A DNA stretch of 61,878 bases, the filler included. It is 13 parts of 13 records of this genome, joined end to end, with 100 filler letters (N's around TTAATTAATTAA, not from the genome) between each part and the next. Parts side by side here need not be neighbours in the genome. Positions count along the whole stretch, not along the records: positions 32,576 to 36,747 come from SRR7504441_67761; 12 more parts are not named here. One strand, 5' to 3'. Made by a program: the position numbers and the translations under genes. The notes under the pieces are model-generated. The model made no database searches. It was not told where the DNA came from and worked only from the letters and a program-made list of their open reading frames with translations. Position 1 is the first letter of the stretch; each line of letters starts with the position of its first letter. Positions 1,590 to 41,928 of this stretch are shown here, in pieces.

Positions 1590-3224
1590 ATGACAGAGAC
1601 TCTGCTCGACACCAAGATGGCGTGGGGGGTGCCCACCTTGTCGGGCACGGCGCCTGCCGATCGATGGGGGCACACTGCAACAATGATTGACCAGAAGCAC
1701 ATGTACGTGTTCGGGGGTCACGACTTGAAGGATACCCCCCTGGGCGACGTCGTGGTGCTCAACACCAACACATTCGAGTGGACCGCGGTGAACGCGCACG
1801 GGGTGCTACCGTTGCCCCGAGACAGCCACGTGGCGATGGCCGTCGGCCGGTTCCTCTTCGTGCACGGCGGCGGCGACGGCAAGGTCAGCTTCGGCGACAC
1901 GCACATGTTTGATACCGAGAACGATGCCTGGCAGCCGGCCACGTGCTCGGGCAAGGCTCCGGCGCTCGAGGGACACTCAATCGTGCGCATCGGTGAGGTG
2001 GGCTATATGTATGGCGGCTGCTGCAACAACGAGCACGGCACCTGCTACAGCAATGAGATCTTCGCGGTGCGGCTGGAGCACTCTAACAAGGAGGCGGCAG
2101 ACGGGGCTAAGTGGCGAGTTCAGTTTGATAGTCTGCAGATTGGAATCGGCCCGACGACAATGATCCTGCCTCCGATGCGCGAGAGCCACCTGGCGAGCAG
2201 CTGCGGGACAGATATGTATGTGTTTGGAGGGGACGGGGACAAGGGATACCTGAACGACTTGTGGCGGTTTGATACCACAAAGAGCGTGTGGCACATGATC
2301 ACCGACTTCACGGGGAAGCCGCCCTGCCCGCGAGGGGGCCACTCTGGATGTTGCATTACTGACAAGCTCCTGATCTTCGGTGGCAGCGCCAGTGACCTGT
2401 CGAGACTCTGTTTCAACGATATGCACATTTTCGACATTGAAACCCAGACATGGCTGATGGCAAGGCTGGTGGGACACCCGCCCTGCTCTCGCTTCAACCA
2501 TACGCTGGTGGCTGCCAATAAGAACACTAAAGTCGTCTGCTACGGTGGCTGCGAAGACCAACCAGCTGGCGCGCCTGATTACGGCAACGGCCCTGTGCTG
2601 GTATTGAACAACGAGCTGGCCGCAGACAGCACAATTGCGGCTGACTGGGGTCCGGGTGTCCATTTTGACCCGTGCACGCCGCTCACATCCCTCGACTGTT
2701 TTAACAACTTCATGAAGACTGAGCTCATCCGAGTTAAGAACGAGCATCGGGACATTTCTCATAACGAGGCCCTCAAGCTAGTGGGCCAGCGCTGGGCTCA
2801 GCACCCCGACAACCCGAAGTGCATCTTGACGGCCAGAGATTCCGACGACCAGAACGGCGATGGCTCTCAGGACGGCCCGGGAAAGAAAGGGATGCCAGAG
2901 GGCTCCCACTTTGTCGGCACTGTGGTTGGCTCGTTTGAGTTAGGATACACTGTCTCAGTATCGTTCAATGGAGACCAGCAGAGCTACAAAGGGATTGTTT
3001 TCAGTGATGATGGCACCCAAAGCCGCAACAAGCGCAAGGCAGCGCCTGGGCTGCAACGAGTGGCCGGGAAAGAGTGCCGGCTGCAGCCACCTGGCCAGCG
3101 ATGGTCGTTCCCGAGTGGAGCCAGGCTGCCACCACCGGCCAGCGCAGCTAACCTGAACAACCCGTACTACAGAGAGCAGTTGGCTGCGGCTACTAACTGG
3201 ACTAACAGCCTCTCGCGCCAGTAA
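1590..3224 (+). CDS. Kelch-repeat protein with a YABBY/HMG-like helical motif and a C-terminal beta-rich motif
   Basis: Uninterrupted 544-aa ORF with about six kelch repeats (RWGHT, RDSH, LEGHS, RESH, RGGHS, RFNHT, each followed by a GG motif), then FNNFMKTELIRVKNEHRDISHNEALKLVGQRW and GTVVGSFELGYTVSV...YKGIVF. Confidence 0.88.
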   Translation: MTETLLDTKMAWGVPTLSGTAPADRWGHTATMIDQKHMYVFGGHDLKDTPLGDVVVLNTNTFEWTAVNAHGVLPLPRDSHVAMAVGRFLFVHGGGDGKVSFGDTHMFDTENDAWQPATCSGKAPALEGHSIVRIGEVGYMYGGCCNNEHGTCYSNEIFAVRLEHSNKEAADGAKWRVQFDSLQIGIGPTTMILPPMRESHLASSCGTDMYVFGGDGDKGYLNDLWRFDTTKSVWHMITDFTGKPPCPRGGHSGCCITDKLLIFGGSASDLSRLCFNDMHIFDIETQTWLMARLVGHPPCSRFNHTLVAANKNTKVVCYGGCEDQPAGAPDYGNGPVLVLNNELAADSTIAADWGPGVHFDPCTPLTSLDCFNNFMKTELIRVKNEHRDISHNEALKLVGQRWAQHPDNPKCILTARDSDDQNGDGSQDGPGKKGMPEGSHFVGTVVGSFELGYTVSVSFNGDQQSYKGIVFSDDGTQSRNKRKAAPGLQRVAGKECRLQPPGQRWSFPSGARLPPPASAANLNNPYYREQLAAATNWTNSLSRQ

Positions 3225-10451: not shown

Positions 10452-10954
10452 NNNNNNNNNNNNNNNNNNNNNNNNNNNNNNNNNNNNNNNNNNNNTTAAT
10501 TAATTAANNNNNNNNNNNNNNNNNNNNNNNNNNNNNNNNNNNNNNNNNNNNCTGTCACCAACATCTGTGTCGAGGCATCCACGTCCCGCTCGGTCCCGAG
10601 AAGCGCCTGGCTGAACTGACACCGGGTATCAGATCAGCCAACAAGCCGCCTGAAAAAAGCAAAAAGCGCTCGAAACATGGCCGACCTTCAGAGCCATCAA
10701 TGGTCGTGATCTAGCCCACGCATTGCTTAGTCTAGAGCTCTTTATTGTCTTGATGCCAAACATTTGAACCGAGTGGGACACGAACAATGTTAGTGACCGT
10801 GACACGTGCTGGTACTAATGATACCTACATGTATTGATGATAAGTGATATATTTAACGTATACAATCGACGTCCTAGGTGCCATGCACAGCCCCATAATT
10901 ATGAGACATGCCGGTATGACACCAGACCGATATACCCCGATGAACGCATGCAGG

Positions 10955-17627: not shown

Positions 17628-20600
17628 TTATATCTGGTCAGACGGGCTGACTGCTCCTGTTGCAGCACTAGTCTGCCAGGGATATTCATCCACCGCATCC
17701 ATTGGATTGGCCTGGTCCGTGCTCGCAACCAGATCTTTCGGCGAGTTCAAGGTTGACAGTGGCGACAATGTCAATGTTGAGTTTGGAGTGATAGGATCTT
17801 CTTGAGTCGAACGGCTACTGTTGGGAGTCACGACTTGTTCCTCATCAAATAAGCACCTGCACCGCAACCATGCAGGGCAACGTGGCGCGTCATCGGCAAT
17901 GCTGCGCATCTTATCCTTGCCTCGCATAAAGTAGTCCTGCCACACACACAGCCCAGTCAGCCAAATTAGTATGTGTGAACGGCTGGGCACCGGATTGGTC
18001 CATTGGCGCCAGATGCCAAACCCTACCGTAAGCGATACCACCACAGCTAGAACAATGCCCCAGACTAGGCGGCTGTCGCTCTTCGAGCTAAAAGTGCACT
18101 CAACTAGAATCGCAGCAATGGTTGCAAATATGCAGACAGCATACCCATACCGGCGCCAATGGTTCACCCATCGAATCAAGCATGGCTGCGTGTAATACTC
18201 AATAAGAAAGATTGCCACGAGCACTGGAAGGGCCGAAAACAGCATCACTTTGTGATTGGCGTAAAGGAAGAGAGTGAGACCCACAATCAAAATTTTGCAG
18301 ACATTGAGCATCACTAAGTAAGCCGGTTGGTACTTGATATCCAACCCAGGGTCGCCGAACTGGATATGTGGGAACAGAAAGGATGCTGCTGGGAAGTAAA
18401 GCATAAATCCTACACTTGCCAGCGTTACGTACGTGATATGCACCCCCTGCCAACAATCCATGTCTGTGATGATTAGTTGGTAGTCGCTCTGATTTGTAGG
18501 ATAGACGCAAATCAGCATTTGAATCAAGCTCTTGACAATGGGGAAGTACAGACCCGCTGAGGTACATGCAAGCACAATCAAAAAAATCCCCATCAATGAA
18601 AGAACTGGCGCTTCGTTGTTGTTCTCATCCCGGCCCAGCCTTCCTTGTGGGTACTTCTCCGTGTCCTTATCGGTCAGCAGGTGCTGCCCATACCATGCCA
18701 GAACTGGATATAAGACCGCTACTGCAAAGCATGCGAAGAACATCCCAAGATATACTCCAGACCAGGTTAAAGTCAACCCCAAAGCATCAGTGATGTGGTC
18801 GTCATCCTCGTTGGACTCGTCCCACCAGATCCCCGGTTGAAATGACACTGTGAGAAATGCAGCAATATCGAGCACGACAGTGAATGAGTGAACCCAGTTG
18901 CCCGGATAGAACCAGTTCACAGCCAGTATGTCATCTGTGAGTTGACCCTTATCGTCCTGTTCCTTGAGATGGCTCAGCACTTCAACAATGTCATCATACA
19001 ACTGTTTGAGCATATCGTCTCCTTCTGCTTCAGGTGAGGCAATTTTAGCCATTGCACCCTGTCGCCTGATTTCGTCATCCTCAATGTCATCGTTGATTGC
19101 GACGTTCTCAAGAGCCTGTCGAGACCAACCAACTCAAATAAATACTTAGTACGCGAAGAGCCGCAAAACACTATACAAGATTAAGGAATAGCCTACCTCA
19201 TCGATATCTTTACCCGTCGCGCCAGCCAGATCTTTGGCGAAGATGAATGGAGCCAATTCCGACATAAACTGCTGCACTTTCTGTGGGGTCGACCGGCGAG
19301 CTTTGCTGGCTTTGCCCACATTTGCATTCTTGTGGATGTGATTATAGAAAAGCAAGAAAACTGGGTCATCCACCAGAAGCACGCCCTCCATATGCAGGAC
19401 CATTTGATCCTGTAGCTTGAAATTTGATATTACCTCCGATGCACGGACTTTGCGCCACATGCTTTCCCTTTTCCCCTTGAACACATTCGCGACCGCATCA
19501 CCAGCTTGCTCACCAATGTCACGAATCTCTTGGAACCCAGACATAAAGGACTGTCTCAGGCTCTCCTCAGCTGGTTCAGGTCCCTGCTCATCCTCTTGAA
19601 CACCTGCGCTGGTGCCCTGTGGTGCCTCCGGCTGGCTGATGCTAGAATCTCCAGCAGATTGAGGCGACATTTGGTCATCGGTCAGCTGCTCCTGAGACTG
19701 TAAATCACACATTGCTACTGTAGCTTCTATGCGCATGCACGCTTCCAGATGTTCCTTTGCAGCAACCCACTCTGGTGAGCCTTGACGGGTTCGGTTCAAT
19801 TTGTCCTGTGCAAGCTTTGTCTCCATACGTGCCTTTTTTTGCTTGAGTGAGCATTGATCACCAACTGTCAAGACCTGTATAGACCTTCTCAACTCATGGC
19901 GCAGCTGCCCCGATGTGAGCATCAACTCGTCATCAGGTACGGCCTCCTGCTGTGGAGAGGATTGCTGCTGCTCATGCTGCTGAAGCATGGCGAAATAACG
20001 CGTTTTTGCCTTTTCTAGGTCTTTCTTCTTCTGGACAATCAAGCTGTAGTCGCGTACAGCCACTGGCGCCTGCACACTGGGATCAGATGTGGCTACATTC
20101 TAAGAGCTTACCCTAATTGCGTCCAAAAGTTCCGCCTTCTCCTTTGCAACCATTTCTTTGGCTTGCTCAACACGCATTCCCAGCAAAGCTCCTGTGGAGA
20201 CTCTGACCAACCTATTATCTTGATCATCGGTCTGACTTGGAGGCGGCTGAGGAGCTGGGTGCTGTGATGAGGGACTGTCTAACACAATTCGCTCTGTTTC
20301 AGGTTGCACATCTGATACAAGCAGTGCTTCCTCAACTATGGGCTCAATGAACGCATCTCCAGCCTCGCCAGGAGGAGGTAGTGCTGAAGAACTGCGTACA
20401 AAAGAATCTCGGGTTTCAGTATCGTTCCGCATTTGATCCAGTTCAGTTCCAATCTTTGAAATGGCACCCTTGCCCAACCCATATTTGAGTTCTGCAACTA
20501 TGGTGAATAAATTCCAGAATTTGGGGAAATCAAGACCCACATGCATCTCTTTGTACATGGTCCTGAGAAATCCATGCACAAGGGTCGCATCAATTGCGTC

Positions 20601-23600
20601 ACAGCCTTCCACAATTTCGCAACAGTGCTCCTCCATCACATCCTCAAAATCCTCTTTCGTAAAAGGTGGAAGCGTTGGCATATCATCTAGAGATACCATT
20701 GATGCAGCACCGAGGGCAAATGACAATGTGTCAAAGTCCACATGTGTGGAAGCTGGGTTTTCAAAGTAAAGCATTATGACCTTGTCCAGCGCTATACACT
20801 TATTCGAGTATGCTAGATATTCAACCTCAGATGCTTCTGTGAACTCGTCGCCTACATCAGCATCTATCAGGAACTGCCGGGTATTCTGGTCGCTAACATT
20901 GAATCGGCTAGACCACCCTGGAACATCAGCGTAATAGTTAAACACTTTGCGCATGTAGGCCTGTATTGCATGATAACGCTGTGACTGTCTTCTGAGTACA
21001 GATTCTTGCAGTTTTACCAATATTTCCTGGATTCTCTGTGTAGCCTTGCCATCCTCATATGCCTTTCGGGCCCGCTTGCAACGACGCCAATGAAACCACA
21101 GCTGAATGCGTCGTGCAGCATTGAGTTGCTCGATGGTATAACCAAGCTTGCGTGCCTCTTCAATTTGCCTATCCGATGGGTCCATGGCTGCAAACTCGAG
21201 GGCTGCAGCTTCAGTGCGGGCCACATCCCCAAGTTCATCCACCTGCTTTGACCTTGAGGTGATTGTAGCGCGTAGAAGGTTGATAGCAGAATCGCTGTCA
21301 CCGGCTGCTGCAAGAGAGATTGCTAGCTGTCTGGTGGGGTCCCATTCAGCACCGTCCATCTCTGACAATACAGTGCCGTACTCATTTGTTGTGTGCGTGT
21401 ACAGTTGGCTGGCTTCTACAGCTTCGTGTTCACCACGGTCGTGTATCTCCCAATAATTGATTTTACCGAGACCATAGGCCTGAATTGCAATCGAGTCGCC
21501 CTCATCTGTACTGTACCACCATTTCTCGAAATATGCCTTCCTCTCAGTTTGTTCTTCGTCATCTTCGTCATCCTCTTCAGCTCCATCCAGCAAGTGCAAG
21601 AAATACTGTCAGCCAGCAGAGTCAGCCACAACCTCCTGCACGGTGGTACCTTGTCCACAATCCTGCGACCTATATCTGCGTTCCTGTCACTCAAGCAGTA
21701 AGTGCTACCCGTTAAAGCCGGTCTGACATGATAGCTGGTGGCTCCCTCGCGCGCAGTTTCTTGCGTATCCGATGCACTCCAACCTGCAGCCCGAGCTTGC
21801 ACCACTAGCAAACACATAGCCCACCTTAGCAATCCGTTCCTTATATATGCTGCTCATTGTGATGCAAAGTACGAGTGCCAGCCCATTCACAGTTGCAACT
21901 AAGGCCGCCAGCCCGATGGCTATTGATCCGTTGACCACAGACCCGCTATCTACGTCACCCTGAGTGGCGATAATAGGTACCAGAACTCCGAGAGGTATGA
22001 ACAGTGTCAGGCACAAGATACTGATCACACGGGGCAGGTCTGAACCCTCCTGGAGCCGTATTAGTCAGACGAGCGCAGCTCTGAGGCTGTGCCTACCTGA
22101 TGAGCGACTTTGGCCTTGTGAATCACCTTATTGACAAAGTAGGTGATATTGCTCTCAGCTTTCCACAGCAATGCGATGAAGATTCCCGCCAGAGGGACCC
22201 CTGGCAACTATGGCTCAGTCTGGGACCTGTACTGGGTTCTACCGATGCACAAGAGCAACGCAGTGGAGGAGAAATCTGAGTCATCAAATACCCCGACGCC
22301 AGCCGCAGAGAGGGCTATGATCACCACCAGTGGGAGCAGCGTGACTACGAGCAGTGGCACATACAGATAATGCCGTGCCCAGACGTTGTCTTCATCTGAG
22401 GTACCGAGCGGCTCATGGGTGGTACATGATGGCAATTGCTTGGGGATGAACGCCACCATCAGAAAAATGGGAGCAAGACAGGTGAGCCAAATCAACATTT
22501 GCACACCTCCAGGCGCATTGGTTCGGAAGCAAATTGCGGTTATCAGCGCCATGTGGCACAGCAGTAGAAACAGTACTGTGATTTGAAACGGATTCTCTGG
22601 TTCATACAGTTGGAACAGCTTTCTGTAGTCTCCTCGAACCGCCATCTTTCCAGCCTCGGCATTGTCCACTGCAACCATGTACAGGTAGAGCCCGACTAGC
22701 GGCAGGATGAACAGCAGGCCCGGCAGGAAAGCCACCAAAATGCGCACAAAGTCGCTGAGATCTGGCACCACAGTCACAGGCTTGCAAGCAGCGCAGTAAG
22801 TCACCGCTCCTGAAATGCATCACAATTGGAGCCAAAGTGGTCATTGGGATAGCAAGCACCACCGTGAACGCCAGCCAGGCTATTGGCAGCTGAGGCCCAG
22901 AGCTCACCCTAAGCCGAGGGGGGGGGACCTGGTTGGGCTTGCCCTCTGGCACGCAAGCCAATGGCCGTAAACAGACGGGCAGGTCCGTATGGTCTGTGTC
23001 ATCCCACGCGTAATCGAATGCCATAGGCGCAATAATCCACAGCACCATCGCCGCCGGGAAATAGAAAGTCACTGACAGCACTGCCAGCTTTGACTGCTCG
23101 CAATCGCCGAGCGCCTGGTACCACGGCTCGCCCACAGTGATCGGCACCGCACAGCCGAGCGCGAGCACGAACAAGCCCCGGGTGAGCTTGGGCATCATTT
23201 CGTACCACGGCACCGGCTCCGGCTCCGGCTCGGTGTCGCCGGTGTTGACCGACACCGAACTCGCGCGGTGGCTCGCCCGGGGGTGCACCGAACTCGCGCG
23301 GTGGCTTGCCTGGGGGCGCACCCCCCCCACCGAACTCGCGCGACCGTTGAGGGAAGCCTGGTATGTGGGATCGGAGGGTTTGGGCGGTTCTTCTGCCGAG
23401 AGCAGGAAGGCCCCGACGGCGACCTGGACGCAGGTCGAGCAGCAGGTGACCACCACCATCACCTGGCCGCGCCGGTCGGCCGGGGGGGCGGACAACCAAC
23501 CCACCCGCTCCTGGTCGGTGGCGCCGCCCATCCCGTATATGGCCGCCTCAATCAGGACGGCCGTCGTGAACACTGTGATCCCGAGCACCAGCCCTGAGCA

Positions 23601-32575: not shown

Positions 32576-35500
32576 CTGACCTGAGCTCGGTGAGCTCGCT
32601 TTCTGCCTTCTCCTTGGCGGCGTTCGCATCCTCAATCCTGCCTTGCACGCCCTGCTGGGCCGAGGAAACTATCAGCGCCACCGCCTGCAGCTCCTCTTTT
32701 AACCTGCAGAAACACCACATAAGCACTCGCAACCAAAGATGTATCGATAATCAACCTGTCTCTTTCCTGATTCGTTTGCTCCAGCTGAAGCTCAAGCACA
32801 CTCTTGGCCTCCGCCGCCTCCTCAAGCTGATCTTCCAGCCTCTGCCTGGCCACACTACTTCCTTCCAAGTGCTCCGCCAGCGCTCGATTCCGCTCAATCA
32901 GCTCGTCGTGTTTGACAGAGCTTTTCTGGAAGAATTCGCGCTCCTGAATGCTGTTGCGCAGCCTCTGCTGAAGATCGTCCTTGATGGCGCGCGACTGCTC
33001 GTATTCGTCAGCCAGAGTTTCTCTGGCGCTGATGCTGCTTCCAAGCGCCTCCTGCAGGCCCTGGTTGGCAATACTGCTCCCCTCCAGCTTCCGCCGCGCC
33101 TGCACACCAGTCAGAGTCTGTTTCAGTTGGTTTCAGTTACCTCATCCCGGTCTGCAGCCATCTCTGAGAGCGCCCAGGCCTTGGCTTCGAGCGCCTCCTC
33201 CATCCCTGTAGCAACACAGATCACTTCTTTTACGAAGCTAACCGCACCGGTCAGCGCTGTCCTGAGAGACTCATTCTCAGCCACAACCCGCGACAGCTCC
33301 CCCGCAGCCAGCTCGCGCTCAGCCTTGGCCTCCGCCGCCTTCGCCTCGGCTATTTTTACATCGCGTCTGCCTTCGTCGAGCTGATTGCTCACCTGAAACT
33401 CTGTCAGATACAGTTAAGGTCTGGTCAAGGCACCTTCTCCAGGTCCGCGCGGGCGGTGCTTGCTTCCTGGATCCTATGGGTTCGTTCAGCCTCGCTTCTG
33501 GCCAGCTCGATGCGACATTCGGTCATCTGCTGGTTGACCGCCTCTTTCTCTGACGCACACGCCTTCAGCTCGTTGCTACATTCCTGCAGCTCGAGCGCCA
33601 GCCGCTTGCTGTCAGCCGACGACGCGGCTAGTTCTGCAGCGCACTCCTCGAGTTCGCACATCAACTGAGCCCGTTGGCCGTTGGCTGCCTCGTGCTGGGC
33701 CGAGATATCGACCAGCTGAGATTCCAAAGTCTCCTGCGAGAGCTTCAGTTTGGCCAGTTCCAGCTCCAGAGAGTTGCTGGCCTCTGCGTGCTCTTCCGCT
33801 TTCTTCAGAGCTCGCTCAGTCTCAGCGTTCGATTGGTTCAAACTCTCAGCGCTGGTCTTCAGTTGCTGTTCCAGAGAAACTCGCTCAGCGTCGCTTCTGG
33901 TCAGCTCGATGCGAGACTCGTTCAGCTGCTGGCCAACAGCCTCTTTCTCTGACGCGCACGCCTTCAGCTCATTGCTGCATTCCTGCAGCTCGAGGGCTAG
34001 CCGCTTGCTGTCTGCAGATGACGCCGCCAGCTCCTCGGTGGACTCCTCTAGTTCTGCCATCAAGTTATCTCTGTCGTCTCTGCACCGCTTCAGCTCTGCC
34101 AGGCTCTTGCTCAGCTCTGCCTCGCACTGAGCGCCCGTGCCCCTGCATGCCTCCAGCTCCTGACCTTGCTTCGCCAGCTCAGTCTGTGCTGACTCCAGCC
34201 GAGTTTCCAGCCCAGCGAGGTCCGTTGTGCTCTGATTCAGCGCCTGTTGCAGCTGATCCTTGTCTGAACAGACCATCAACAACCGCTCTTCGCACTCAGC
34301 ATTCTCTGAAGCCAGTCGCTCATTGTCGGCGGCACAGCCGTGCAACTCCTCAATGCATTCCCTCAGCTGCTGTGAAGCATGCTCCTTCTCGTCAGTACAT
34401 AATTCCAGCTCGGTCCTGATTCGGTCCAGCTCCGCTTTCGCTGTGGCCAGCTCCGCAGCACAGGCGGCCAGCTCCGCTTGTGTGGCTTCGACTTGGCCTC
34501 TCGAGCGCTCGCCCTCTAACATTGCTGTGTTTAGCATCTGCAGTGTCTGCTCCTGCAACTCGAGTGAGGGTCGCACCTTCCTAATTAGGGAATAGTGGGG
34601 CGTCACACCTGCTTCTCTGCTATTTGCTGTCTTGACGCCCGCAGCTCGTGGCAAGACGCCTGCTCGGCCGCCAGCGACTCGCCCAGTACCTGCGCATTCC
34701 TGGTTTAGGATTCCCTGCTCTGGGAATGTGTTAAGTTAGGCGATTTCCTAATTAGGAAGGCGGTTAACACCTTGCTTAGACCGATCAGCCGGTCGGCGTC
34801 GAGCCCTTCCTGCTGACTTTCCAGCAACCCAATCTGCTGCCTCATCGCTCCAGCCTGAGCCGATGTCGCCTGACAGTCCATTAATTTCCGTTCAAGTCAG
34901 TTGGGCCACCTTGACATTCGCATCCAGCTGGTTCGTTAACGTCGCCATCACGCGAGATTCGGCACAGAGCGCCCCAATCCGGTCGGCCCGGCCTTGCGAG
35001 ACCCGCTCCAGCCGGCCGATCCCCTCGAGTAGCGCCTGGTGCTCCCCCACCGCTTGCTGGATCGCCATTGCGTACGCCCCAGCCTTTTGCCGCCATCCGG
35101 TCGCGTCAGCTCGCAGCTCGTTCAGCTCCTGCGAAATGCTCTTGTTCTGACTTCTGGTCTGCTCGTCCTCCTGGCGCAGACTCCTGTTCTGGCCCCTCAG
35201 CCGGTCAAGCTCGTCCTCCTTCAGAGCGAGCGCCTTCTCCACTTTGAGCACCTGCATGGCCGTTAGATTTCAGTTGGTGTCCGTTGAGGCACCGAGGTTT
35301 GGATCTGGTTTCGCGAGGCTTTGGAGCTCTTTCTCTCAGCCGCAAGACACTCCTCCAACTGTTGTATCTGACCAGCCAACTTGGCCTCGGTGCCCTCAAA
35401 CACCTTAGACTGCTCCTGGATTTTCTGTCCCCCAGACCGGGTTAATACACCTTCCTAATTGGGAAATGCTCTAGTGTAACACTTTCCTAATCAGGCAAGT

Positions 35501-36747
35501 CACCTCGGCGACAAGAGCCAGGTGGTTGTCGTGCTCCGCAGCGGCCGCCACAGCCATCGCCTGCTGCTGCTCCACCTCCGCCACCAACACCTCGCAGTTC
35601 TCCTGCAACTTCACATTCTGCGCATGCAGCGTCTGCCTATCGCGCTCCGCAGTTTGCCTCGCCTCAAGCGAAGCCTTGTCCTCCTCTGAGCGCAGTTGCT
35701 CCGCCTTTGCTAGCTCCTCTCTAACGGCTTTAATGCTGGCTTCGGCCTCGGCGTGCTTCTCTTGTGAGGCGGCACATTCTTGCTGCAGCTGGTCGATCCT
35801 CTGCAGGCGCTGAGCCAGCTTGAGCTCCTGCTCTTTCTGCACCTACCCAGCGGATTATTCCCTAATTAGGAAGAATAGTGTTAACCTCGTTGATGTGCTC
35901 TCGCTCCGCCTTGAGCTGTTTCACCGAGCCCTCTGCACAGCCACAATATCAATCTACCAACACTCCACAGACTCACCTGATTGAAGCAGCTGGTCTTGCA
36001 ATTGGCGACACAGCTCCGTGCTCGCCTCCAACTGTTCCACCATCACCAGCCGCTCCGCCTCCAGACAGTCAGCCCTAGACTTCTCGCTCTCGCCTGCCGC
36101 CCGAAGCCGGCCCGTCTCCTCCTCCAGCTCGACCTGGCGCGTCGCAGCCCGTAGCTTGACCTGCTTGAGCGGTTAAAACCTTCCTAATTAGGCAAGTATC
36201 AGTTAACCTGCTTGAGCCACTCCTGCGACTCCAACAACCCGGCGCATTTCTGGTTGAGTTCGAGCTGCAGCCCGTCGACTGCCATGCGAGACTCCAGCAG
36301 CTGCTCCTTCTGAGCCACAACCATCTCCTTGAGCTTAACTGCCCAGCCGGTCAATTCCAAATTAGGAAGGTGTTACACTAAACTAACTCCTAATTAACAA
36401 GCTCACTCGCTGTGATCTCGCTCTCACGCCGACTTTCCGTCTCGGCTGCAAGCTCGTCAGCGCATTTAGCTTGCTGCAGACTTGAGAAATTAGCCTCGCT
36501 GTCTAGGTGCTGCTGTGTCTGCTGAAGCTGCGCCTGACAGCTCAGGAGCTCAGCTCTGACTGTGTCCAGCTCGGCTGCAGTTGCCTCGTGTCTTGAGAGA
36601 ACAAGCATCTGAGTCTCAACCCTCTCATGCGCCTCTGCGATTGATTGGTTCATCGATACCATGTCTTGCTCTAAACCAAGCACAGCAACGTGGTATTCAT
36701 TCCGTGTCTCGACGGCATCCTCCAGCACGGCCTCGAGCCCCGACCGC
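32576..36747 (-). CDS. Very long coiled-coil protein, intron-rich, both ends truncated
   Basis: Heptad-rich exons spliced through more than 10 short introns; internal ~57-aa repeat (ELAASSADSKRLALELQECSNELKACASEKEAV) at ~33480-33660 and ~33885-34060. Confidence 0.75.
34577..36406 (-). mobile_element. Cluster of six related introns sharing a palindromic TTCCTAATTAGGAA core (introner-like family)
   Basis: Introns 34577-34608, ~34690-34770, 35425-35503, 35843-35885, 36161-36207 and 36339-36406. Cores at 34580, 34747, 35454/35486, 35861, 36183 and 36357/36389. Confidence 0.65.
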
Positions 36748-40721: not shown

Positions 40722-41928
40722 ATGGCGCCGACCGGCGAGGATGTGGAGCCTCCTCGTTCGGCAGCGGAGCCTCCCGTGCCCTCCGAGCCGGGCGGATCCG
40801 ACCCTCCGGTCGAAGGCGAGTTGGCACCTGTGTGACCAGCCACTCATGACAGGCTCTGCAGGCAAGCCAGACGAGGATTCCTTTCACAGACGCCCGACAA
40901 TCCTATCTAGAGGCGACATCCTATCCAGAGGCGAATTTGCTATTCGCAATGTGTCCTGGACGAGCATGTTCATGAAGGACTGGTTTCACCTGCTGTGTGA
41001 GAAAAGCGTGTTTGAGCTCCTTCTTATGTACTGCCTTGGTTACGCAATCATCATTCCGCTATTGGCCTTTCTCATCTGGCTGTTCACTCAGGTGAATGCT
41101 ACTGACATTGTCCCTGGTGAGAATGACCAGCTTGTCGAATCTGTGGCCTGAGAGCTGGGCGCAGATGGTTCCTTCCAAGAGTGCATGAAGCTGTCGTGGC
41201 AGTCACTTACAACCATAGGGTACGGTGGCACACGGCCAGAGGGGGCTGGGGACAACATCGTCATCTGCTTTTTCACTATACTCAACCTTGCCTACGACGC
41301 TGTCTGCATTGGTCTCTTCTGCACTCGGCTGTCCCACCCACATGCTCGAGCACAAGACGTGAGCTTCTCGAGCCGTGCATGCGTCTGCCACGCTCAGCCT
41401 GGCAGGCCAATTCGGCTTGAGCTCCGCGTGCAGAACAGATTCATCCGGGCGTTTGTTGATCCATTCATTAGGCTACACATGATCCGCTGGCACTCGGGCG
41501 CCGATGGAAGGAGTCGCGCATGCTTCGAGTTCCACGAACTCCCCGTCGCCAACCAAAGTGGAACCTCCGGCGTGTTTGAACCTGTGGCGTTCCTGCAGTA
41601 CCCGTGGTCCGTGCTTCACCACATTGACGAGACCAGTCCACTTGCCCCGTACGTGTCAACCGACGCCAACAACAAGCCTGTCGTGACTGAGGCTTGGTCC
41701 CGTGACTCTGTGGAGATCCTCGTCACGATGACCGGCACCAGCTATTCTACAGGCAACATTTGTGAGGCCCGGTGTTCGTACCTCCTGGACGACGTAGACT
41801 TCGGCCACCGCTTTATGGACATGCTCGTCTTTGACCAGGAAGGCGTCCTCGAAATGGATGATCCGAAGAAGCTGAGCTTAACAGAACCCGAGGACCCGAG
41901 TAATTTGCAGCTCCCAGAGTGCTTCTGA
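40722..41928 (+). CDS. Inward-rectifier potassium channel (Kir family)
   Basis: KDWFHLL slide helix, SWQSLTTIGYG filter, VSFSSRA, HHIDETSPL, EILVTMTG, ARCSY and GHRF. Introns at 40816-40852 (GC-AG) and 41117-41164. Confidence 0.92.

Follow-up and report, generated by a model that had tools for sequence, protein, structure and literature searches.

Six introns of one coiled-coil gene share a very small palindrome: candidate introner-like insertions

What gives six of the twelve short introns of a single gene the same palindromic sequence? The gene, which encodes a coiled-coil protein, lies on one contig of the window, by which we mean the whole stretch of DNA analysed here (61,878 bases: 13 contigs joined by N44-TTAATTAATTAA-N44 spacers). 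Introners are the best-supported source of new introns, and the best available reading of the six introns, to which we give a probability of about one half, is that they derive from a very small palindromic element resembling introners and miniature inverted-repeat transposable elements (MITEs). We favour it because one of the introns, intron B, bears a clean insertion signature, because copies are inverted relative to each other, and because one or two further copies lie at outside loci. Mobility is clear for one copy only, the one in intron B.

The six introns and their shared core

We placed the introns of the gene by hand, from three-frame reading and the sequence itself. Excision of 12 GT..AG segments yields a single frame of 1187 codons without a stop, the other two frames holding 46 and 48 stops. 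The segments are 32-81 nucleotides (nt) long and 11 of the 12 are not multiples of three, so that each frame shift is mended exactly by a GT..AG segment; this repair of the frame appears to be strong, though indirect, evidence that the segments are introns. AG/GT is found at 7 of the 12 junctions, mostly after GAG, AAG or CAG codons. The original prediction had placed six related introns of 32 to about 81 nt at 34577-36406, and both the span and the size range were reproduced. The gene and these introns are listed below, each intron with its score in local alignment to a 36-nt palindromic consensus.

32576-36747 (4172 bases), minus strand: coiled-coil gene, partial, open at both contig ends, 13 exons and 12 short introns
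36339-36406, minus strand: intron A, 68 nt, phase 1; cores at 36387-36400 (degenerate) and 36355-36368, joined by a GTGTAACAC arm; score 20
36161-36207, minus strand: intron B, 47 nt, phase 0; near-complete palindrome with its core at 36181-36194, followed by a copy of the target; score 21
35843-35885, minus strand: intron D, 43 nt, phase 0; core at 35859-35872, GTTAAC arm at the start; score 16
35425-35503, minus strand: intron E, 79 nt, phase 0; cores at 35484-35497 and 35452-35465 with GTGTTACAC between them; score 18
34690-34770, minus strand: intron H, 81 nt, phase 0; core at 34745-34758 between GTGTTAAC and TTAACAC arms; score 21
near 34706-34726, minus strand: second, degenerate palindrome of intron H
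34577-34608, minus strand: intron I, 32 nt, phase 0; core at 34578-34591, the acceptor being the AG of the core's GGAAG; score 16

Allowing up to three mismatches, the 14-mer TTCCTAATTAGGAA matches eight times in the window, always within 34578-36400, where a mean of 0.74 matches is expected and 0 of 100 shuffles reach eight. All eight of these cores (8/8) are inside introns A, B, D, E, H and I, which together cover 350 of the 61,878 bases (~0.6% of the window), and none is found elsewhere in it, in agreement with the proposed tie between motif and introns. Exact CCTAATTAGG is present in four copies, all at 34580-36192, with 0 expected (100 shuffles). The search originally suggested for this purpose, with a 10-mer and two mismatches, has no power in the window, since it returns 17 matches where 13.2 are expected. 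The core is its own reverse complement, and so is the arm GTGTTAACAC. Against the self-complementary consensus drawn up by the earlier reader, a palindrome of 36 nt, local alignment gives the six motif introns scores of 16-21; the other six introns of the gene score 5-7, and none of 1934 control windows taken elsewhere in the stretch exceeds 11. The exact 36-nt consensus is matched by no copy. Two introns had been said to hold two cores; this is true of A and E, and H, with its second degenerate palindrome, brings the count to three. The layout of these two-part introns is core-arm-spacer-core.

Half of the gene's introns (6/12) carry the motif, clustered within 1.8 kilobases (kb), and the other half are free of it:

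35933-35976, minus strand: intron C, 44 nt, motif-free, used for comparison; score 5
35252-35292, minus strand: intron F, 41 nt, motif-free
34870-34909, minus strand: intron G, 40 nt, motif-free
33393-33433, minus strand: intron J, 41 nt, motif-free
33100-33140, minus strand: intron K, 41 nt, motif-free
32704-32755, minus strand: intron L, 52 nt, phase 2, motif-free

Three short introns that we read on other contigs are all motif-free as well: 20070-20111 (42 nt) and 19116-19196 (81 nt), which share one long minus-strand frame, and 41092-41154 (63 nt), in a Kir channel gene. Since 9 of the 15 introns read (six in this gene, three elsewhere) lack the motif, it does not characterise the introns of this organism in general. 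Four of the motif-free introns, F, K, G and J, measure 40-41 nt each, and F, K and G share a block, CCAACTGA, that is lengthened to ACCAACTGAAA in F and K (F vs K: 26 direct, 12 inverted); the block marks a second family of introns or else is a branch signal of extended, strict form.

When the contig is compared with itself at high sensitivity, no more than four matches appear: a 128-nt repeat in the large exon, one 17-nt exon match, and two inverted matches between introns (D vs I, 18/18, and A vs E, 19/20; blastn E 2e-4 and 3e-3). The similarity of the motif introns ends at their borders and the neighbouring exons are unalike, which rules out segmental duplication of parts of the gene; the self-comparison reveals no exon copied together with motif introns. 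In the coiled-coil protein the 128-nt repeat (33486-33613 and 33885-34012, 88% identity) shows up as a repeated block of peptide. With the largest exon (381 amino acids) as query, no orthologue of the gene was found at E<=1e-10 among longer proteins.

The element also touches the splice signals. Introns B, D and H start exactly with a GTTAAC or GTGTTAAC arm, which supplies the donor, while E starts with GTGAC and I with GTGTGAC. In motif-free introns a YTRAY word resembling a branch site stands 10-17 nt upstream of the acceptor; its place is held in B and E by TTAAC from the 3' arm (12-17 nt upstream of the acceptor) and in A and D by TTGAC and ATAAT. The proposal that CTAAT of the core acts as branch point could hold at most for intron I, where the distance is workable (8 nt), and not for the other five. 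Likewise, the acceptor at 34577, said to be the element's own GGAAG, is the AG of the core in the 32-nt reading of intron I, whereas an alternative of 50 nt ending at GAG fits the frame equally well. Introns A, D and E have a common 3' tail, CCGGCTGGG..AG, in the sense direction.

Insertion signature, orientation and related copies

Of the six palindromes, that of intron B is the most complete: it covers positions 2-34 of the consensus, from which it differs by a 4-nt insertion and three mismatches. The intron is bordered by a direct repeat:

36206-36217, minus strand: upstream copy of the 12-nt direct repeat GCTCAAGCAG+GT, made up of the last 10 exon bases and the GT of the intron
36159-36170, minus strand: downstream copy of the 12-nt direct repeat, made up of the last 10 intron bases (with the acceptor AG) and the first 2 exon bases

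Counting both strands, the window has 25,544 GT..AG pairs with a length of 30-90 nt, and for each of them we measured the run of identity anchored at both junctions. The 12 bases of intron B are the sole value of 10 or more, the next best being 9, which occurs twice; the other eleven introns of the gene have 0-6. We read the repeat as the mark left by an insertion that duplicated 10-12 nt of target across AG/GT, the second copy giving the acceptor. The first 14 bases of intron I resemble the first 13 of the next exon (11 of 14 columns, one gap), a likeness that is not significant by a rough estimate over 12 introns. Inverted ends are present in B, H and D.

Pairwise local alignment in both directions sorts the six introns into two classes, {A,D,H} and {B,E,I}, which all 15 pairs fit (15/15). 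The exact 18-mer TATTCCCTAATTAGGAAG of D is found inverted in I (18/18), and A and E align over 36 nt, including both cores, arm and spacer, only when one of them is inverted (score 37 vs 18 direct). Because these shared asymmetric variants are opposite in D/I and in A/E, copies are present in both orientations within one gene, as the idea of an orientation-independent element would have it.

Related sequence comes from three runs, X1-X3 (shares of the contig 0.10, 0.08 and 0.05), none of them on record as RNA; one run with related sequence carries the label seawater metagenome. The contigs of the three runs are unspliced, with 95-99% identity for the most part, and none of them links two exons directly where an intron would be missing. 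Among the introns, D is spanned in full (X1, X2), C in full or almost (X3, X1), and B, H, G and F partly (X1); none of these contigs extends to A, E or I in this gene. X1 and X2 lack four bases at 35874, which leaves D with an arm identical to the consensus and suggests an ancestral state for the latter. A further contig of X1/X2, 287-289 nt long, has two cores 11 nt apart (matching 34576-34594 and 36178-36195) in flanks unlike the gene, and it matches the corresponding part of intron I; from its sequence we read it as a two-core copy at another locus. Some contigs of the related runs start or stop inside the palindromic cores of H (34754) and B (36191), ends that would fit repeated or hairpin-forming sequence breaking assemblies and are no evidence alone.

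The core pattern was also sought in larger collections. Metagenome contigs have at least 117 loci with it, and among the matches listed 116 fully flanked instances form 30 clusters, 9 of which have TG after the pattern. Three unrelated high-copy repeats from other organisms account for the bulk of these matches, and on local alignment to the introns candidate metagenome relatives are inseparable from bacterial matches. The only related-looking metagenome locus among the matches listed is L070 (guanine-cytosine (GC) content 0.57), which by reading has 27 nt in common with the X1/X2 copy; it lies in a tandem repeat at a contig end, without a clear gene. L117 was rejected as a relative, being plain bacterial coding sequence. 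Prokaryote genomes contain eight core-pattern loci. No other sequence is common to the window and any fetched locus.

One of the three high-copy repeats of the metagenome contigs is a foldback element of ~270 nt with long inverted arms, lying outside genes; it is found in L023 and at least ~28 further loci of soil metagenomes, and its centre contains the 18-mer followed by TGTTTAAC. Two other high-copy repeats hold the 18-mer, at no fewer than 40 and 16 loci. On the eukaryote-like contig L128 (GC 0.52), an element at 2800-3150 whose inverted ends measure ~46 nt encloses three cores with a 47-nt period, and a further pair of cores lies at 10760-10840, 40 nt from each other; alignment does not support kinship of these cores to the family in the window.

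In viral contigs the core pattern has 15 loci (~10 of them independent), compared with 7 for the reversed control, which is near chance level and no clear excess; a second pattern has four loci, three of which are one homologous region. The sequence TTGCCTAATTAGGAAGG, a 17-mer also present in intron B, forms tandem arrays with periods of 19-28 nt in AT-rich, giant-virus-like contigs, one of them of 290 kb (L002:4193-4328 and L002:5596-5752; also L003, L011, L014 and L001). The arrays directly follow a DVNP-family gene and a kinase gene, the basic C-terminal tails of which are alike, and in the 98-kb relative the motif is found solely at these two arrays. The match between these arrays and the intron core may be chance, given 15 loci against 7 in the control. 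Two inverted motif copies ~105 nt apart lie between genes at L006:7261-7399, on a viral contig (GC 0.59) with a primase-helicase-like gene; an identical 16 bases precede each copy, and one of them is ~40 nt ahead of an ATG. The 17-mer occurs in the non-coding region of small Rep-encoding (CRESS-like) contigs, too (L004:607-623 and L007:32-48), matches that are probably due to chance.

How the introns may have arisen

If the six introns are introner-like, their source would be a non-coding palindromic DNA element of ~32-36 nt, in which GT(GT)TAAC arms enclose a TTCCTAATTAGGAA core, two cores occurring in some copies. It would land in coding DNA, and the ordinary spliceosome would remove it from the transcript. 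The palindromic sequence fills most of each intron; at B, D and H the donor comes from the GT that opens its outer arm. At intron B, 10-12 target bases across AG/GT would have been duplicated, and splicing would take out the element and one target copy exactly. The self-complementary core and arm would offer a GT start and TTAAC/CTAAT branch-like sites in either orientation, and in the orientation seen in I the GGAAG of the core could serve as acceptor. The other five copies would then be older insertions, in which the intronic target copy has decayed or other acceptors have been recruited. We consider improbable a bolder form of this idea, according to which a perfect palindrome of 32-36 nt is a complete, orientation-independent mobile intron maker, the smallest known, with donor and branch signals on both strands, an acceptor from a target duplication of ~10 nt, a size below the reach of published screens and a core perhaps shared with giant-virus arrays. 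A core shared with the tandem arrays of giant viruses might hint at viral carriage.

The original prediction is supported in part, by the frame logic, the similarity limited by intron borders, the duplication at B and the outside copy; the intron generator itself we infer from one clean case, B, together with family resemblance. A number of observations weigh against it. The other five motif introns have 0-5 anchored bases, as is usual for AG/GT junctions, so that a target duplication is seen in one of six, and the length of the direct repeat, 10-12 nt, is known from that one case. An allele without the intron, which the original prediction proposed to look for, is absent from the X1-X3 contigs that reach D, C or parts of B, H, G and F; the motif introns are present in all contigs of relatives (95-97% identity) that extend to them, D in full and B and H partly. 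A transposase was likewise to be sought, and none of the 20 long open reading frames (ORFs) of the window that we scanned has a transposase, integrase or reverse transcriptase domain, while the consensus arm with half-core has 0 matches in the viral contigs. The earlier observation that no full core occurs in other contigs stands (0 matches in the other 12, ~56 kb), which confines all copies in the window to one gene. The copies are too unlike one another to be recent. In part, the two orientation classes may come from decay of one or the other half of each palindrome, and A vs E would need no second insertion if the stretch between two palindromic cores had been inverted in place. Finally, the sense-oriented 3' tail of A, D and E, present regardless of class, is not predicted by simple flipped insertion.

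The main rival, which we hold to be unlikely yet deserving of weight, is copying within the gene: an intron already bearing the palindrome would have been copied to new sites of the gene with no free-moving element. The route could be reverse splicing into the gene's own transcript with subsequent reverse transcription and recombination, local repair, or gene conversion among the introns, and the cores would then have promoted inversions. That all six copies of the window lie within 1.8 kb of one gene, that the motif is in half of this gene's introns and in 0 of the 3 read elsewhere, and that A, D and E have their tail in the sense direction all speak for such copying, as does the fact that other introns share blocks too (F vs K, above). 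Reverse splicing, however, keeps the orientation and makes no target duplication, whereas B has a duplication of 12 nt and D and I are mutually inverted; moreover, a copy with unrelated flanks exists in the relatives, and a related one in L070.

A selected element acting in cis is a less likely source of the likeness, and we regard it as quite doubtful. The palindrome would be the site of a dimeric DNA- or RNA-binding protein, or a hairpin that shortens over-long introns, and it would lie in introns because its TAA/TAG triplets are uncodable. Eight like sites cluster within 1.8 kb, core and arm are each perfect palindromes, and in the folds of the three long introns (68-81 nt) core pairs with core in a hairpin that brings the ends together; the motif-free introns are 40-52 nt long. 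The folding energies of these two-part introns are -17.8 kcal/mol for A (z -1.48), -22.6 for E (z -1.25) and -19.4 for H (z -2.44), and in the folding model the hairpin may keep the effective length of the long introns near the 40-nt norm. The single-core introns, in contrast, fold no better than shuffles (z +0.52, +0.10 and -0.56), and the same is true of motif-free introns; this makes it more likely that the palindrome is relevant at the level of DNA. Nor would a cis-acting site explain the target duplication of B or an element that reaches exactly to the donor, and the window has 0 Rfam matches.

That these are ordinary old introns, alike by chance or through the strict splice signals of an intron-poor genome, is close to refuted: although arm and core hold a donor-like GT and branch-like TTAAC/CTAAT words, and the long uninterrupted ORFs of other contigs suggest such a genome, nine other introns of the same organism are motif-free, the motif (14-36 nt) extends far beyond any signal, and 0 of 100 shuffles reach the core count.

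Elsewhere in the window the contigs hold genes of ordinary eukaryotic type, which for the most part are long frames without interruption (CLC channel, 827 codons; ZPR1, 707; aldehyde dehydrogenase, 649, matching the Pfam model over 1-461 in one piece), which suggests that the genome may be poor in introns. Kelch, Tcp11 and receptor ligand-binding domains, a Myb protein, an RRM protein and the Kir channel are also found there; tRNAs number 0 in the window. The closest relatives of the aldehyde dehydrogenase have 67% identity, and those of ZPR1 are two EukProt transcripts at 65% and 59%, followed by proteins at ~40% (plants, animals, oomycetes). These low identities to the best relatives indicate that the source is a poorly sampled protist. 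A minus-strand frame at 17628-21608 (~1300 codons, without a Pfam match) is broken only by two short introns, of 42 and 81 nt, which are multiples of three and contain in-frame stops.

If elements this small do make introns in either direction, part of the unexplained short introns in compact protist genomes could have the same origin, and intron B would be a clean example of how duplication of an AG/GT target makes an insertion silent. Genes for coiled coils might be prone to intron gain, as the GAG, AAG and CAG codons that precede most of the AG/GT junctions here are common in them.

Comparison with known introners

Introner-like elements of fungi are about 100 nt long and form stable structures. 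The gene described here resembles them, and cases of duplication within the same gene, in having look-alike introns clustered in one gene; it differs in that its copies are mutually inverted and that one of them shows a target duplication.

Introners have been reported in 201 species and come from many types of transposon (PMC12130899), and published ones take one or both splice sites from the target duplication (PMC9860276; PMC11282704). As in the accounts given of introners of Micromonas pusilla and other algae, which are MITE-like DNA transposons that give rise to introns, the intron here is a short non-coding repeat with inverted ends, would gain a splice site from a duplication and has canonical GT..AG borders. 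The element here, however, is 32-36 nt long, a near-perfect palindrome without an interior, and is present in one gene and one or two other loci, whereas the algal introners described occupy hundreds of genes. The introners of M. pusilla are described with inverted ends and duplications of 3 nt (PMC11282704), compared with 10-12 nt at intron B. One published introner screen, as described, compares introns by blastn at E<1e-5 (PMC12768974); the matches here, 18-36 nt long, reach only 2e-4 even within one contig, so this family would be missed by it. A full-text literature search gives no paper with the 14-nt core plus flank.

In being from a marine protist, in the inverted end repeats capable of forming a hairpin, in the direct repeats at the borders and in the lack of a transposase at hand, the family resembles the introner elements of Amoebophrya (Farhat et al. 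2021, PMC7789003). Those are described as having inverted repeats of 8-20 nt that vary between families, direct repeats of 3-5 nt and mostly non-canonical ends. Here, in contrast, 12 of 12 introns are GT..AG, one core is shared and the sole clear direct repeat is 10-12 nt long (12 nt as measured at B), so that, judged against the description in that source, identity with the Amoebophrya type was rejected.

MITE-derived introns of Fritillaria and nonconventional introns of euglenids, as presented in PMC11282704, likewise have terminal inverted repeats that join the intron ends and junction repeats resembling target-site duplications, but they are given non-canonical ends and an altered or separate route of excision, whereas the ends here are canonical (PMC11282704). 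Among these systems, the element in the coiled-coil gene would be an unusually small, palindromic variant of the known introner kind.

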